A stretch of 64,000 bases of DNA from Octopus vulgaris. Lineage: Eukaryota. Positions 46,398-64,000 of this stretch are shown one piece after another. A model generated the notes under the pieces. It was given only the letters and a program-made list of their open reading frames with translations. It did no database searches and was not told where the DNA came from. The stretch spans positions 51,460,001-51,524,000 of the forward strand of contig OX597817.1 in NCBI GenBank assembly GCA_951406725.2, written 5' to 3'. Within the stretch, counting starts at the first letter, position 1, and the number at the start of each line of letters is the position of its first letter. The position numbers were made by a program, and so were the translations under genes.

Positions 46398-48518
46398 TTA
46401 TTTGCCTTTCTTTTGGATTGAGTTTCTCTGTATAAGTATGTTGGAATGGTTAAGTTTGGGCTTGTATTTTTCAATGAAGAATGTTTCCTTGTTTAGTCTA
46501 ATTTGTGTTGGTGTTCCGATAGCACATTGGTAGAATGGAAAGATTAGAAATTGTGGTAGTAGTTGCTTTGCGCATTTCTCAATGTGCTCACTAAAGGGTA
46601 TCATTCTGTATTCTGGGAATGCAATCTTTTGTCGATGCAGTGTGCATCTACGTCTGAGTGATAGTCCCGTGGATCCCACGTAGTCTTGGTGGCAGCCCGA
46701 GCATTTTATGACATAAATTATGTTTTCAGATACACAAGTAAAATTAGATTTGATCTTGAATTTCTGTCCCTCTTTGAAGAGGAATTCTGATCCTTCTAGC
46801 AGGTTTGAACATGTTGCACAGTTCGGTCTACCACATTTTTTTACTTTTGCATCCGTAATTTCAGAAAACAATTTTGCCTTTGTGAGAATCTTTTTAAGTG
46901 ATTTAGGTTATTTGTAGCTTTTAATGATTTGGTGTATGTTTAGAATTTCCTTTAATTTGGGGTCCTTATGAAGTATTGGTAAATTCTGGGTGATGATGGT
47001 GAAGGCTTCTTTGTTTCTGGGGTTGTATGTGGATATGTAAGGTAGTATTTTCGGGGAAGGTATGTTGAACTTTTCTTAAAGTTTCTATGTTGATTGCTGT
47101 TGCACGTCTGATCCCATCCTCTATGAGTTGAGCTGGGTAATGTCTGTCAGTTAGGGTGTTTTTGAGTTCTTGCAGTCTAAAGTTCCTGGTATTTTGTTCT
47201 GACACTATTGTACATATCCTTCTTGCAAGGTTGAAGGGGATGTTTGTTTTAGTGTGTCTTGGGTGGCATGAATCAAAAAGAAGGTATTGTTTGGCGTCTG
47301 TGGCTTTGTAAAAAATGCCTGTTTCTATTTTAAGGTTAATATTTTTAATTAGTATATCAAAGAATGGGAGCTCCTTTTTGTTGTATTCCATTGTGAACTG
47401 TATATTTGGGTTTATGCTGTTCAATAGGTTTTTAAATTTTAGGAGTTTATCTGTGTTTTCATTCCAGAGTATAAAACAATCGTCCAGGAATCGTTTCCAA
47501 TTCTCTTTTATGTATTGAGAGAAGGGGTTTCCAAAGATTGATAAAGATTCCTGGTAAATGATTATTTCCAGGTAGCCCATTGTTAGGTTCGCAATGGCTG
47601 GTGCTGCCCTTGTACCCATAGCAATTCCGGATTTTTGACGGTAAAATGTATTGTCAAACATGAAGTGGTTATTATGTAGGATGAATGCAATTGATTTAGT
47701 AATGAAATTCTTTACTGATCCTTTTTGGTATTTCTTCCGGAAATTGGTCCAGCCAGAACTGTATTGCCTCTAGTCCATAATTATGAGGTATAGTGGTATA
47801 TAAGTTAACTACATCAAATGAGACCATGATTGATTCTTCCTTGGCTTTTTTTGGAAGGTGGTTTAACATATCTAGGTCATCTCTGATATGGCTATCGATA
47901 TGTTTAAGGAAGGGTTTGAGGAGGATGTCCATAAATAGACTTAGTCTGTGTGTTTTCTCAGGTTGGGCCAGCTACAATGGGTCGTAGTTTTAGGTCCCCC
48001 GGGTCGGTGTGTGTATGTATGTCTTTGGTGATTTTTTAATGGTTTCATTTATGATTTGGCTTTTATGAACTTTTGGCAGACCATAGAAGAGGCTAGGTTT
48101 GTATTTAAAGTTTGTTAGAAAGTCAATCTCTTTGGTTGTTAGTTCCTTTTCATGGGTTTTAATTAGTGAAGATAGAGTTTTCATTATTTTTTGTGGGGTG
48201 TAGTTGGTGATTTTTTCATAATGCTGGTTGTCATCAAGCAAGGAAATTACAAGATTTCTATAGTATGATGTATCCATTATTACAACTGCACTTCCCTTGT
48301 CTGCTTCCTTAATGGTTATATCTTCATCATTTTGAAGTTCTATCAGTTCCTTCCATTGTGTAGTGTTCAAATTTGAGTTAACTGTCTGTTTATGTATAGT
48401 ATGGTAGGGAAAGTTCTCAATTTGGTTACAGAATTCGTCAAGATCTTTATTTCTTCCTCTGTGGGGGATGTGTTCACTTTTGTTCTTGACTAGTGATTCA
48501 TCTTCAGTATTGAAACTG
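46398..48518 (-). pseudogene. PLE RT/GIY-YIG endonuclease pseudogene with at least 3 frameshifts
   Basis: Four ORF fragments colinear with the intact ORF at 60377-62704. Confidence 0.9.
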
Positions 48519-48625
48519 TATGTATATATACATACATATAAATACATATATATACATACATATATACACATACATATATAGATATACATACATATACATA
48601 TATACATATATATATATATACATTC

Positions 48626-48666
<41 letters not shown>

Positions 48667-49310
48667 CACATACATATACATATATCTATATACAAATATA
48701 TATACATATATGCATATATATACACACATACATATATATATATATACATATATATATAAATATACATATATACACACATACATATATATATATACACCAA
48801 CTTACACACACACAGGTGCGTGTGTATCTGAAAGCGTGTATATGCGTCTGTGTGTCCGCGCGCACGCGTGTGCACTAGTAAGAGGTAGGAATCTCATGCA
48901 ACAGTAATGGTTTCGTTTAATCTGAAAATCCTATTGAATTTGATAAGAGCAGACAGAGAGAGAGAGACAGGTTTACACATTGAATGTTCTCATTGGATAC
49001 ACAGCGACTGTTTTCCATAGGAAATAATAAAAATGTGCAACATGGGTGATAGAAACTAACCGCTTGATGTTTATTAAAACACTAGAGTAATGTAAATACC
49101 ATAGAACCGTTATTGGATTGTTCGAGCACCGAGAAAGGCCTTTTATGTACGTCGCTAGACTTAGTGATCTCTTCCAAGTATGCGTGGAGGCACGGAGCAA
49201 GCGGAAGTTTGGATAGGAGGAAATGAAGAATGTTGGTAAAGTTCTATCATTTACAGTTGAATGACAAATGACAGATATCGATATTTCGAAGGCGGAGAAA
49301 AATTTTACCT

Positions 49311-59645: not shown

Positions 59646-59837
59646 GTATATATATAGATATATATATATATATGGGTGTGTGTGATAGTGTATAGAAGAA
59701 TATATTAATAAAAAGAATTCCAACCTTGTCTGATTTTCACGTTTTATTTACAATCTTATAATGATATATTATAAGATAATATATTATAATTGAATAAAAT
59801 AAAATGAAATAGTAGAATGTTAAATATTCATTCTGAT

Positions 59838-59882
59838 TGAACTAGTACTTTCATGCATTGAATTCTGCAATCTTCGGGTTCA
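59838..59882 (-). ncRNA. Minimal hammerhead ribozyme (U4C) in the PLE pLTR
   Basis: tgaac-CCGAAGA-t-TGCA-gaattcaa-TGCA-t-GAAA-GTAC-TA-gttca: 5-bp stem I, palindromic loop III, same strand as the RT. Confidence 0.8.
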
Positions 59883-59944
59883 TGTAGTAGTGTTGACAGT
59901 CATGCTTCACAATTTTTGACTGTAGCAAGATGAGTGATTCTGTG

Positions 59945-60061
59945 CTATAAATACAGCTGGGTAGGCTCCAGAGTGCTAGGTTTTGCAAACTGTATTCTGA
60001 CCAATCAGTGTGTAGTATCACTCAATTACTTAAGCTGATTGGTTGGTTGAGCTGATTGGTT
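59945..60061 (-). promoter_or_regulatory. Putative Pol II promoter in the pLTR (CCAAT boxes plus TATA-like element)
   Basis: Two minus-strand CCAATCAGC at about 60033-60059, one plus-strand CCAATCAG at 60001, and minus-strand TATTTATAG at about 59953-59945, about 60 nt upstream of the hammerhead. Confidence 0.4.
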
Positions 60062-60376
60062 TAGGCATCACGCTTTGTTGGACAGGTCAAGAGTCCTGTA
60101 TCTTGACCCTGGCCGAAGCAGCAATTGTTGGGTTATTTTTAGAAATGTTGTAAATATCCTTTGTCAGAGATTTTTATATTTTTATATTTCAATTGTCATC
60201 ATCATCATTGTCAGCACCTTAATTATTGTTGCTAGTGGTGATGGTGGTGGCAATAGAACTTTTAACCCTAAATAAGATAATTTTCCTGCTATCTTCGTCT
60301 TGATCACCTTTAGTATTGTTGTTGTTGTTAGTGGTCATGGTCGTAGCAGTGGAAGTAATACCTCTAAGTATTATTA

Positions 60377-62704
60377 TTATTGCTTATTTAGCTTGGGTTC
60401 GAATTTATCAATAAAATTCTTTTCTCTGATTTTCCTCTCGATTTCACTTGGGCTGTGTAATTTGTAGAATGGAAATATTATATATATTTTCCGACCACAT
60501 GTTGCTAGGTGGTTACTCAAAGGTATCTGACGGACCTCTGGGTCTCTAATCTGTTGCCGGTGTACACGTGAGCGTTCTAATAGTGCGTTTCCCGTCTGAC
60601 CTACATATATTTCTTCACAATTTGGGCATTTGATGCAGTAAATTAAATTTCTGCTTTTGCAGTTCATATTCGCGTTTGTGAATATTTTCCCGGTTTTTGT
60701 GTTTATATATTGACCGGTATGTATGAATTGGCATGTGCCACATCGGCTATCATTGCATTTAGATACCGTGAATGTTTGGTCTTTGTTGCTGAGGTCAAAT
60801 TTTGCCTTTGTTAGTAATGTTTTCAAGTTTTTAGGCTGTCTTTTACTAAGCACCATAGCTCGATCCTTGATTATGTCTTTTAATTCATTACTTTGGGCAA
60901 TGATTGGTAGGTTTGCTTTGGCAATGTTGAAGATATTCTGGTGACATGGGTTGTGTGTCACTATGAATGGTATGACTTGTTCTTGTTTTCCTCTTCCTTG
61001 GGTTGTCCTAAGTTGTTGTATAGGTATTTTTATAGCCCGCTGTATGCCATTTTCTATAAGTAGAGATGGGTATTTTTGTTTGAACAAAAATTCTCTTAGT
61101 TCTATTAGGCGTTTGTTCCTGATATTTGCATCTTCTACAATAGTACAAATTCTTCTGGCTAGGCAGTATGGGATGTTACGTTTTGTATGTGGTGGATGGC
61201 ACGACTTAAAATTTAGGTATTGATGTGTGTCTGTGTGTTTATAGTATATATCTGTGGTGATGGTGGTGTCTTTTTTAATTACCATTATATCCAGGAATGG
61301 TAATTTGGTACTACTCATCTCCTTTGTAAATTTGAGAGATGGGTGTAGGTTGTTCAGGAGGATATTGAACTCTTCCAGAGTATTTAGAGATTCTGTCCAG
61401 ATTATGAAACAGTCGTCTAGGTATCTCTTCCATGCCTTTTCAATATACTTTCTAAATCCAGTGCCATAGTTTACCTCCACCTCTTGGTAGAGTTGTTCTT
61501 CTAAGTATCCCATTACAGAGTTGGCGTAAACGGGAGCAAACCTCGTTCCCATCGCCGTGCCTCTAATTTGGATGTAATTCTTTCCATTGAAGAAGAATGT
61601 GTTATTTTCTAGAATAAGTTTGACTGTGTCTAATATAAATGGCACTGTGAATCTGCTGGGAATCACTTCTCTATCTTTTTCTAACCAGTATTTAATCGCC
61701 TTTATTCCTAAATCGTGTGGAATATTGGTGTAGAGGCTTACCACATCAAAACTTAGTAAAACTGAATTTGTTTCTGTTGTTTTGGGAAGATGGGACAGGA
61801 AGTCGATGTCATCCCTGATGAAACTTGGTATGTAAGTACATAGTGGTTTCAAAACAATGTCAATAAAATTGCTTAGACGGTGTGTAGGGCATGCTGGACC
61901 AGCTATAATAGGTCTAAGTTTTAGGTCTTTTGGATGTAATAATTTTATGTACTCACTTTCTTGTTCTTTTACTGCCTGTTGAATGTTTTTTGATTTGTGT
62001 ATTTTTGGTAAGCCGTAGAAGTTGCTGGGTTTTGGTTCAAAATTGGTGATGTAGTCTTTTTCATTATCCGTAAGTGAGTTGTGGTGTGTTGAAATCAGGT
62101 TGTTGATCTTTTTCATGATGTGGTGGTCTATATTTGCGGGTATTTCACAATAGAAGGTTGTATCCTTCAGTTGGTCTTCAACCAAATCCTTATAGTATTC
62201 GGTATCCATAATAACAATTGCACCACCTTTATCTGCTTGTTTAATTATTATTGTTTGATTGTTTTGTATACGTTTACATGCAGACATCTCTGATTTGCTA
62301 ATGTTTGGCCTAACATTGGTATTGCGTCTAAGGGGAAATTTAGACAGGATATCAATGTATTGGTCAAGGTAGTTATTTCTTCCTTTTGGTGGGGTGAAAT
62401 TTGATTTATTCCTTACTAGGGATTCATCAATCTCATTACTTTTGTTAGCGAAGAATTCTACAAGTCGTAATTTTCGACAGAATTTTTGGATATCCTCCTT
62501 TAATTCTTGGTGGTTGGCTGTTGGTGTAGGTGTGAATTTCAGTCCTTTTGACAGAAGTTGGATTTCATCATTGTCAAGATCTCTTTTTGATAAATTAATT
62601 ATTTTAGGATCTATACGTTCAGTTGTTTGGGGTATGTTTCCTCTTGGATTTTTTCTTTCTCCGGTGTTTGTTGTCCTGACGTAAAAAAATGGATTTTTTT
62701 CTGG
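60377..62704 (-). CDS. PLE reverse transcriptase / GIY-YIG endonuclease (ORF2); first ATG at 62287, frame open from 62704
   Basis: ADKGGAIVIMD, FYGLPKIHK, LRPII, SFDVVSLYTNIP, GTAMG, RYLDD, LPFLD, linker CNDSRCGTC, and LIYCIKCPNCEEIYVGQTG. Manual translation upstream of the ATG gives 139 stop-free codons including IINLS and LLSKGLKFTPTP. Confidence 0.95.
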   Translation of the reverse strand, partial: PEKNPFFYVRTTNTGERKNPRGNIPQTTERIDPKIINLSKRDLDNDEIQLLSKGLKFTPTPTANHQELKEDIQKFCRKLRLVEFFANKSNEIDESLVRNKSNFTPPKGRNNYLDQYIDILSKFPLRRNTNVRPNISKSEMSACKRIQNNQTIIIKQADKGGAIVIMDTEYYKDLVEDQLKDTTFYCEIPANIDHHIMKKINNLISTHHNSLTDNEKDYITNFEPKPSNFYGLPKIHKSKNIQQAVKEQESEYIKLLHPKDLKLRPIIAGPACPTHRLSNFIDIVLKPLCTYIPSFIRDDIDFLSHLPKTTETNSVLLSFDVVSLYTNIPHDLGIKAIKYWLEKDREVIPSRFTVPFILDTVKLILENNTFFFNGKNYIQIRGTAMGTRFAPVYANSVMGYLEEQLYQEVEVNYGTGFRKYIEKAWKRYLDDCFIIWTESLNTLEEFNILLNNLHPSLKFTKEMSSTKLPFLDIMVIKKDTTITTDIYYKHTDTHQYLNFKSCHPPHTKRNIPYCLARRICTIVEDANIRNKRLIELREFLFKQKYPSLLIENGIQRAIKIPIQQLRTTQGRGKQEQVIPFIVTHNPCHQNIFNIAKANLPIIAQSNELKDIIKDRAMVLSKRQPKNLKTLLTKAKFDLSNKDQTFTVSKCNDSRCGTCQFIHTGQYINTKTGKIFTNANMNCKSRNLIYCIKCPNCEEIYVGQTGNALLERSRVHRQQIRDPEVRQIPLSNHLATCGRKIYIIFPFYKLHSPSEIERKIREKNFIDKFEPKLNKQ

Positions 62705-63903
62705 TTATGATTTATATTCCTGTTGATGTTTGCTTGATGAATTTTGCGTTTTGGTTGTGGTACTTTACTTGGTTTCGTTATGTTTTCTGTCTTGTTTTTG
62801 GTATTATGTATGCTACTTTTCAATTTCTTGTTAGCATTGTTTTTAACCACCTGGAGAAATGATCTGGGTTTACTTCTAGATCTAGATCGGTTTTTTGTCC
62901 AGTTTCTTGTGGGTAATCTATGTTGAGGTCTTGAAAATGATCTCCTGTTATTTCTACTGCTAATGGTCTGTTCAAAACAATATCTATTTTGTTTGTGCTT
63001 TTTGTTCATGTTGTGTGCATTAGGGTGTTTGCATACAAAATGGGAAGAGTTCTTACCGTAGTTCGTCTTCGATTCGTGGTGAAACGGGTGTTCATGTTGC
63101 CACGTGTTCTGGTGTATGTTGCGTTGGTGAGGTTGTCCACTTTTAATGCTATTTCTCGGAGTTCTGGTGTCTTTACCGTAATTTGTAGCATATTTGTCGA
63201 GAAATAATTGTTTCCGCTGCCAAAACTTTCTTGATCTGCTTTCTTCTTTTGAGATATCTCTGATCCATAGTTCTCGCATTTTTTCTGCTATATTGCCGGT
63301 CGTTAGTTTGGATATTTCATCTCTGATTTGATCATCGATAGCTTCGTATTTGGCTTTGTAGCGGGATTGTTTAGACAGGGTAATGGAGATGTCGGTCCTG
63401 AATTTTATCAAACTAAGGTCCCATCGAAGTTTAGTTTCTTCCTCTGGTTCTCCTGCAATTTCTTTAATTAGGTACTTCCGAGGAAGTATGGGTGCCGCTA
63501 AAGATATCCATTTCGAATGTATTTCAGCATATTTTTCGCATTTATATGCCTTCCAGAAGTTTTGTTTTCTTATGTTAAGGAGTTTTTTCCATGTCTTCTG
63601 TATCTCTTCTCTTTTTCGGTGTGCCTCTTTTTCCAGATTTCTTTCGTTTATTTCTGACATCCAAGGAGGTTGTGGTAGGCTTTCTCTTGTAGATTTTATA
63701 ATTGTTGGTATCATTTCAGCTAAATTCTTAATTTCAGAGTTTATGTGTTCATTTCCAAGTTTTCCGTCTGTAGACTGTTTTTCTATTTCCTTTAAAATAG
63801 AGGATTGTGTGTCAATCATCGTGATGAGTGTTGATAATTTCGATGAAATTTCCATTAGAATTCTTTCGGATTCTGTTAATTTTGTTTGTTGCTTTCCAGA
63901 CAT
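62611..63903 (-). CDS. PLE ORF1, 430 aa; helical/coiled-coil-like N-terminal part and basic low-complexity tail; function unknown
   Basis: Uninterrupted non-microsatellite ORF inside the pLTR-bounded unit. ATG in a good context (gccaacATG). E/K/I/L-rich first ~240 aa and an R/S/K/N/H-rich C-terminus (RSRSRS). Confidence 0.8.
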   Translation of the reverse strand: MSGKQQTKLTESERILMEISSKLSTLITMIDTQSSILKEIEKQSTDGKLGNEHINSEIKNLAEMIPTIIKSTRESLPQPPWMSEINERNLEKEAHRKREEIQKTWKKLLNIRKQNFWKAYKCEKYAEIHSKWISLAAPILPRKYLIKEIAGEPEEETKLRWDLSLIKFRTDISITLSKQSRYKAKYEAIDDQIRDEISKLTTGNIAEKMRELWIRDISKEESRSRKFWQRKQLFLDKYATNYGKDTRTPRNSIKSGQPHQRNIHQNTWQHEHPFHHESKTNYGKNSSHFVCKHPNAHNMNKKHKQNRYCFEQTISSRNNRRSFSRPQHRLPTRNWTKNRSRSRSKPRSFLQVVKNNANKKLKSSIHNTKNKTENITKPSKVPQPKRKIHQANINRNINHNQKKIHFFTSGQQTPEKEKIQEETYPKQLNV

Positions 63904-64000
63904 GTTGGCATATACACAATAGGAATATAGATATATATATATATGGGTGTGTGTGATTGTGTATAGAAGAATATATTAATAAAAAGAATTCCAACCTTGT

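Follow-up and report, generated by a model that had tools for sequence, protein, structure and literature searches.

How does a Penelope-like element (PLE) make its reverse transcriptase (RT) when the RT frame has no start codon ahead of its conserved motifs? The question is raised by an element in a 64,000-nt stretch of Octopus vulgaris DNA (assembly GCA_951406725.2, contig OX597817.1, positions 51,460,001 to 51,524,000), termed the window, whose numbering is used below. Judged from its sequence, this element is an intact copy of a young, endonuclease (EN)-bearing, Neptune-like PLE with two overlapping open reading frames (ORFs). It is very likely that its RT-EN is produced by programmed -1 ribosomal frameshifting at U UUU UUU, as an ORF1-RT-EN fusion of 1175 residues. 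The features of the junction are as follows.

62611..63903, minus strand: ORF1, 430 residues, with its ATG in GCCAACATG context and a TAG stop 23 sense codons past the slip codons
62611..62704, minus strand: overlap of ORF1 and ORF2, 94 nt including the stop, at a -1 offset; contains the indel-prone runs A7 (62700-62694) and A6 (62654-62649)
62683..62689, minus strand: slippery heptamer U UUU UUU, read as His-Phe-Phe in the phase of ORF1; the five sister families have U UUU UUA instead
62705..62707, minus strand: TAA that bounds the RT frame on its upstream side and lies 15 nt ahead of the heptamer
60377..62704, minus strand: ORF2, 775 codons from stop to stop, with PLE N-terminal motifs, RT, thumb, Zn-finger-like linker and GIY-YIG
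62402..62602, minus strand: conserved N-terminal motifs IINLS (62602), KGLKFTPTP (62548) and DESLVRNKS (62428), upstream of the first ATG of ORF2

The coordinates given in the original prediction for ORF1, the RT frame, the TAA, the 94-nt overlap and the -1 phase all check out. The N-terminal motifs precede any ATG, as it had claimed, the first methionine of ORF2 being codon 140, and the caT TTT TTT acg that it had pointed to at 62689-62683 is indeed in ORF1 phase, the overlap with the -1 frame containing no second X XXY YYZ heptamer in that phase. Translation across the junction (...KKIHFF|YVRTT) after a -1 shift yields 407 + 768 = 1175 residues, the fusion length that had been predicted.

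The junction in other copies and sequencing runs

The same arrangement could arise if a one-ORF element had been split by an assembly error or a disabling indel, and the homopolymer runs at the junction, together with a minority of fused copies, lend this explanation some appeal. A gapped pattern spanning the junction gave 192 genomic matches. Among the first 100 listed, 95 read A7-TCCA-T7 and retain two ORFs at the -1 offset, while 5 carry one extra base; the original prediction had allowed that other copies might form one continuous ORF, and this is not what they show. The main copy was without a junction indel at 30 of 30 top-scoring loci, which were chosen for their high score. One contig in each of four sequencing runs, under three species labels, crosses the junction with 0 gaps; this evidence consists of contigs, which drop rare forms, and the RNA status of two of the runs is a guess. 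Since 95 of 100 listed copies, contigs of four independent runs and the six families described below all show the offset, an error or disabling indel is effectively refuted.

Sister families in the same genome

A second element in the window belongs to another family, F2, for which 776 candidates with 95-98% identity were found.

46398..48685, minus strand: window copy of F2, 5'-truncated and broken

Full F2 copies have ORF1 at -1, and their junction reads caT TTT TTA GCC in 6 of the 7 displayed loci that reach it (the output being partial), with QHFLARD in the ORF1 frame and PTFFSQG in the RT frame. A distant ORF1 query revealed four more two-ORF families, F3-F6 (loci L093, L116, L117 and L112). 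When 43 loci were scanned, 26 displayed the -1 overlap with an in-phase heptamer and 2 the -1 overlap with a point-mutated heptamer, 5 were broken by indels or early stops and 10 had no ORF pair; three of these 10 are decayed copies of the sixth family, which also read caT TTT TTA. Six families in this genome thus present caT TTT TTA/T in ORF1 phase, although identity among five of them is 47-71% in the RT N-terminal region and 26-50% in ORF1. The heptamer lies 40-47 codons ahead of GLKF in the five families scored, four of which have no ATG before GLKF. Heptamer and phase are therefore kept while the flanks diverge, in six families at the DNA level and in 81 of 94 homologues at the protein level. 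The conservation of the junction in relatives, on which the original prediction had been staked, is borne out in that the offset and the in-phase U run persist across six diverged families. On the sequences compared, the two-ORF -1 layout is a lineage-wide trait and not a peculiarity of the window element.

Protein homologues carry a footprint of the candidate slip site

ORF1 homologues form 580 clusters at E ≤ 0.001, of which the best 150 were examined, plus the matches of another search. The C-terminal tails of 94 proteins of at least 300 residues were compared, excluding shorter ones, one apparent gene-model fusion of 609 residues and one chimeric Mytilus model. The motif x-F-[L/F] occurs in the last 45 residues of 81 of the 94 (78 x-F-L and 3 x-F-F), whereas the three segments that come before hold it in 5, 8 and 17 of the 94. 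Residue x is never one of K, E, Q, M or W, which have no codon ending in T (0/81 versus a background of 21.7%; the nominal P of 2e-9 assumes independent rows and is overstated, as the rows are related), and this points to the footprint of NNT TTT TTA. The pattern [ILV]F[SYCW], typical of another phase of the U run, was found in 1 of 94 homologues.

The best 120 ORF2 homologues are 517-803 residues long (426-1357 residues were searched) and none is an ORF1 fusion; a search for ORF1 in longer proteins, which is a weak test, gave 0 of 343 candidates. Two ORF2 homologues start with FFR upstream of IINxS, which corresponds to the -1 reading of the same site.

Named relatives comprise bivalves and symbiont bins. 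Close RT homologues P0011, P0013, P0026, P0071, P0098 and P0122 are filed under bacterial symbiont genomes of bivalves, but probably represent host sequence that was binned with the symbionts. When ORF1 and the RT served as queries, metagenome scans gave no confirmed relative, a scan of prokaryote genomes gave one unrelated RT locus only, and the best ESM Atlas score (0.87), to unnamed mollusc-rich clusters, is a lead only. A separate observation concerns homologues P0206, P0221 and P0247, which at the protein level end in Y-F-R where their relatives have S-F-L, two of them sharing an ADHNW tail. Some viruses are known to use UUU CGN as a +1 shift motif, and the sequences of this subgroup may reflect another recoding signal.

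Alternative routes to the RT

Slippage accounts for four features at once, namely the fixed phase, the near-invariant Phe-Leu or Phe-Phe, the constant -1 offset and the missing ATG, and no rival route predicts them jointly. The recoded RT expression proposed by the original prediction for an EN-bearing PLE is supported by the conserved offset, phase and heptamer. Nevertheless, several observations weigh against it: the codon following Phe-Leu begins with G in 60 of 81 homologues, family F3 has an ATG ahead of the conserved motifs, some copies fuse the two frames, the 81 homologues are mutually related and known as proteins only, and no conserved downstream RNA structure was found. Most of these bear on a particular alternative.

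The G-initial codons also fit a T6AG splice acceptor and, together with the fact that five of the six genomic families read TTTTTTAG, make splicing the main rival. The U run would then serve as the polypyrimidine tract for a 3' splice site (TTTTTTAG, in the window element TTTTTTTACGTCAG), with the RT translated from spliced and ORF1 from unspliced RNA. PLEs retain introns, according to the accessible part of PMC8557442. In the window element, a phase-1 donor-like ACG|GTAAGA at +847 could join AACCAG| at 62701 in the RT frame, although that AG has no pyrimidine tract. Against this, no GT..AG joint is present among the listed joints in the contigs of 4 of 4 runs, and single contigs bridge the site without a gap, so that the splicing which the original prediction had named as an alternative did not appear in these contigs, which drop rare forms. 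T6AG or TCAG acceptors require a phase-2 donor, and a simple pattern scan of five families detected none within ORF1. At a splice acceptor, a preference for CAG and tolerance of C within the tract would be expected. The fixed codon phase, the near-invariant Phe-Leu and the persistence of an open ORF1 through the site are also left unexplained by splicing, which is judged unlikely.

Reinitiation or non-AUG initiation near the ORF1 stop, yielding a separate RT protein, could draw on in-frame ATA codons at 62635, 62614 and 62602, which flank that stop, and on the ATG of F3, 16 codons into the RT frame. That ATG falls where the sister families have their ORF1 stop and thus looks like a by-product, and 4 of 5 families have no ATG ahead of the conserved motifs. 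As the conserved in-phase T TTT TTA and the NNT rule would remain without explanation, this route is considered very improbable.

The fused copies bear on a third alternative, in which stuttering by RNA polymerase II or by the RT at the A7 or T7 run adds a base to a minority of RNAs, which then encode the fusion. Across the whole genome, 8 of 192 copies have one additional base at the A7 run (4 with A8 and 4 with an extra G), T8 occurs in at least 1 listed copy, and the A6 run located 30 nt farther on has gained a base in 5 copies and lost one in 8. In total ~14 of ~190 copies carry a +1 base that fuses both frames, and several of them have full open frames of 1199-1214 residues. The gains at the A7, T7 and A6 runs are as stutter would have it, yet stutter needs no codon phase, and the phase is fixed in 6 of 6 families; the conserved run measures only 6-7 U; the A6 run loses a base more often than it gains one, which indicates hot spots acting in both directions; and the fused copies occupy different single-nucleotide polymorphism (SNP) backgrounds, while more than 90% of insertions are without the extra base. 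Stutter is accordingly held to be most unlikely as the source of the enzyme. From their sequences, the frame-fusing copies look like recurrent slips in purine runs, and some are possibly assembly errors. Indels occur in 13 of ~190 copies at the A6 run after the slip site, and in 1 of the first 100 of 277 listed copies at an A6 run inside the RT.

A cis advantage of the frame-fusing +1 variants was also considered and was rejected, because losses (8) outnumber gains (5) at the A6 run and the fused copies have no diagnostic SNPs in common. The extra G before the A7 run (62701; see also L069 and L134) is present at 4 places and on two or more SNP backgrounds.

As for the missing structure, efficient -1 frameshifting without a 3' structure is unusual. 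The fold test addresses local structure, pseudoknots and long-range pairing being outside it, and it revealed no stable structure 5-9 nt downstream of the window slip site (z +0.9 to -1.2 over 40-110 nt), in keeping with the original prediction, which had seen no clear stimulatory structure there. Folds were likewise not significant in F1, F3, F4 and F5. One of two F2 copies gave z -2.8 to -3.8, with a hairpin right after the slip site, and F6 gave -2.2 at 40 nt only.

Distance from the slip site to the ORF1 stop

In 26 of 81 homologues the ORF1 stop lies exactly 10 sense codons past Phe-Leu, and it is never closer; most of the longer distances, up to 40 codons, are represented by 1-5 homologues. 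At the stop frequency of this frame, 8.5% per codon, 59% of independent sites would be expected to stop earlier and 3.5% at position 10. The ten intervening residues have no common sequence. On a quick tree of 86 ORF1s the 10-codon state requires 15 changes, at least 9 of them forced by well-supported branches, and it is clustered relative to shuffles and scattered over the tree; the 15 changes suggest that this spacing is old and has been repeatedly lost or regained. Within the octopus genome, F4, F5 and F6 have natural stops at 10 codons past Phe-Leu, F2 and F3 have TGG at that position and a stop at 20, and the window family has 23 codons to its ORF1 stop.

That the 10-codon peak is an artefact of contig ends was largely rejected, since 4 of 10 clusters examined include members from other, longer contigs whose last residue is the same, and since three families have natural stops there. 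The other 6 clusters are singletons.

Queueing behind a ribosome that terminates at the ORF1 stop, in place of a conserved local hairpin, would be the leading guess for the stimulator. It is conceivable, and is put forward tentatively, that the terminating ribosome acts as a roadblock for structure-free -1 frameshifting in a large invertebrate lineage of EN-bearing PLEs. Equally tentative is the proposal that the 10 intervening codons correspond to collided-ribosome spacing, the stop-paused ribosome standing directly ahead of one with UUA in its A site. The roadblock does not fit the window copy, with its 23 codons, unless a longer queue is formed, for example with a third ribosome; the window spacing is possibly a derived form. 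The spacing could also be explained by a protein-binding element within the 30 nt, by constraint on an RT-frame residue that incidentally generates the stop, or by simple descent. Weak secondary peaks at 21-23 and 30-32 codons might reflect multiples of the ribosome spacing, although the 22-23 group consists of close kin of the query. If the roadblock operates, the RT:ORF1 ratio would follow ribosome load and termination speed. No terminating ribosome is described as a -1 stimulator in the literature searched, and the 10-codon rule, if real, would be a frameshift stimulator for which no description was found there.

The ORF1 protein

Two regions are predicted in ORF1 by AlphaFold2, using an alignment of 105 rows (predicted local distance difference test score of the folded block, 73-98).

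63181..63873, minus strand: ORF1 residues 11-241, predicted all-helical domain with five long helices, the conserved part
62614..63168, minus strand: ORF1 residues 246-430, predicted disordered basic tail (isoelectric point 11.4; 40 K+R versus 8 D+E)

No Pfam family was detected in ORF1, and among 105 of its homologues no family is common to more than 1. Foldseek comparison of the model with PDB and BFVD gave no match at E ≤ 0.001, the best VIA Z (9.4) was to generic helical bundles, and no CCHC motif was seen in the sequence. ORF1 had been proposed to be capsid- or chaperone-like. The capsid half of that proposal found no Gag or capsid fold match, while a chaperone or ribonucleoprotein (RNP) scaffold fits better. 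By analogy with ORF1p of LINE-1 (L1) and with the coiled-coil ORFs of Athena, ORF1 may be an RNA-coating scaffold or chaperone.

Proposed mechanism and comparison with known systems

Most ribosomes would stop at the ORF1 stop and release the 430-residue protein, while a few percent would slip by -1, giving a high ratio of ORF1 to enzyme as in gag/gag-pol. The helical domain of ORF1 probably mediates self-association while its basic tail probably covers the RNA; as part of the fusion, the enzyme would probably be anchored in the resulting ORF1-RNA particle.

Descriptions of EN-bearing PLEs give them one ORF, and little is known of their transposition cycle. The window element resembles those of the Neptune clade (accessible part of PMC8557442) in its RT with C-terminal GIY-YIG, CCHH, CX2-5CxxC linker, partial-tandem pseudo-long terminal repeat (LTR) and (TA)n insertion, and it differs from canonical EN-bearing PLEs, given there a single ORF, in that a conserved 430-residue ORF1 precedes the RT in the -1 phase. 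PLEs are summarized in the accessible text of PMC6431247 as having either one ORF with EN or two ORFs without it. A killifish Neptune has a non-overlapping ORF1 of 420 nt with no known similarity, frameshifting not being mentioned in the part of PMC12602865 available. The legend of Fig. 1 in PMC8557442 (2021) and in its preprint, from the portions accessible, speaks of an animal PLE ORF1 "separated by a frameshift with a pseudoknot"; the legend text does not tell whether this mark stands on Athena only or also on Neptune, and Neptune-like elements may already have been marked. In the literature searched, with Repbase and subscription papers outside it, frameshifting in EN-bearing PLEs is not described, and it is absent from the accessible parts of PMC3846280, PMC6431247, PMC5408684, PMC4209133, PMC5718144, PMC13159263, PMC6515669 and PMC12602865.

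Like the two-ORF Athena/Terminon PLEs, the window element places an ORF1 of coiled-coil type ahead of a PLE RT, the two being set apart by a frameshift; unlike Athena, which has no EN and is telomeric, it bears an EN and is interstitial, and neither a pseudoknot nor a stable hairpin is evident. The slippery heptamer of HIV-1 is U UUU UUA. The five sister families use the same heptamer, and gag-pol also places a structural ORF before an enzyme ORF in the -1 frame, with control of their ratio. In HIV-1 the -1 frameshift occurs on a Leu UUA slippery site (accessible part of PMC13712778). The element differs from HIV-1 in having no LTRs, protease, integrase, RNase H or Zn knuckle, no capsid fold match and no downstream structure detected. 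Its proposed expression logic resembles that of gag-pol, with no support for ORF1 being a Gag, and the element is not an Athena. LINE-1 ORF1p is a helical oligomer that binds RNA and is made in excess over the enzyme, L1 ORF2p being a separate protein. The likely role of the window ORF1, a helical oligomer plus a basic RNA-binding tail in excess, would be similar, although ORF1 lacks the RNA recognition motif and C-terminal domain of ORF1p and its enzyme would be a frameshift fusion, not a separate protein.

A conserved ORF1 (at least 580 clusters, no Pfam model) combined with a retrovirus-type slippery site would imply that these elements make a structural protein and pass through a stage as RNP or particle. 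Many annotated Neptune-like RTs would be N-terminally mis-started, and the "frameshift" in these copies would not be damage. As the family is young (~99.7% identical copies) and intact, it offers a ready test system.

The element, its locus and its family

The remaining features of the element are listed below.

61412..61423, minus strand: RT catalytic motif YLDD
60731..60757, minus strand: CX4CxxC linker motif (CNDSRCGTC) between RT and EN
60386..60646, minus strand: GIY-YIG EN with CCHH, its two Cys lying between LIY and YVG and its two His farther downstream
59652..60376, minus strand: 3' non-coding segment with a (TA)n microsatellite at its end
63925..64000, minus strand: visible end of the upstream tandem copy, which continues ~1.7 kb beyond the window edge

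ORF2 matches Pfam RVT_1 with an E of 4e-6 and 27.1 bits, slightly under the curated cut-off of 29.6, as is expected for a PLE RT, and GIY-YIG with an E of 2.6e-5, above the cut-off. The PLE-type RT is thus joined to a C-terminal GIY-YIG EN bearing CCHH, and the RT-EN linker holds the CX2-5CxxC motif (CNDSRCGTC at 60757) that PMC8557442 gives as defining Neptune and Nematis. Compared by eye, the RT motifs are similar to those of the Neptune rows in the supplementary alignment of PMC8557442 (accessible part); because this placement is such a comparison and not a tree, the element is called Neptune-like.

Upstream of the element lies a 5'-truncated tandem copy of 1803 bp, 99.7% identical to 59652-61454, which forms a pseudo-LTR, and the insertion site is a (TA)n microsatellite. 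Tandem units of 4271 bp occur at other loci of the same family, and inverted 5' pieces at many, completing the pseudo-LTR and partial-tandem organization of EN-bearing PLEs. A scan of the 2.8-Gb genome gave 438 candidates of the window family, 40 of which scored ~100% over 801 nt, and copies are ~99.5-99.9% identical over 2.4-3.2 kb, which indicates a young family. The copies are scattered along the chromosomes, and the window copy has an intact GIY-YIG, in contrast to the EN-less, telomeric Athena/Terminon. In runs X15 and X18, under two other species labels, the element is ~99% identical with its junction intact, which may reflect close kinship or horizontal transfer.

A canonical hammerhead ribozyme in the pseudo-LTR is a character of EN-bearing PLEs; for the window family, an Rfam search gave no hammerhead match, only microsatellite-driven ones, and a pattern search no clear hammerhead core. 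Degenerate hammerhead-like cores (TTGA..A, stem, GAAA, palindrome) are seen upstream of ORF1 in F3, F5 and F6 (L093:1340, L117:319 and L113:240).

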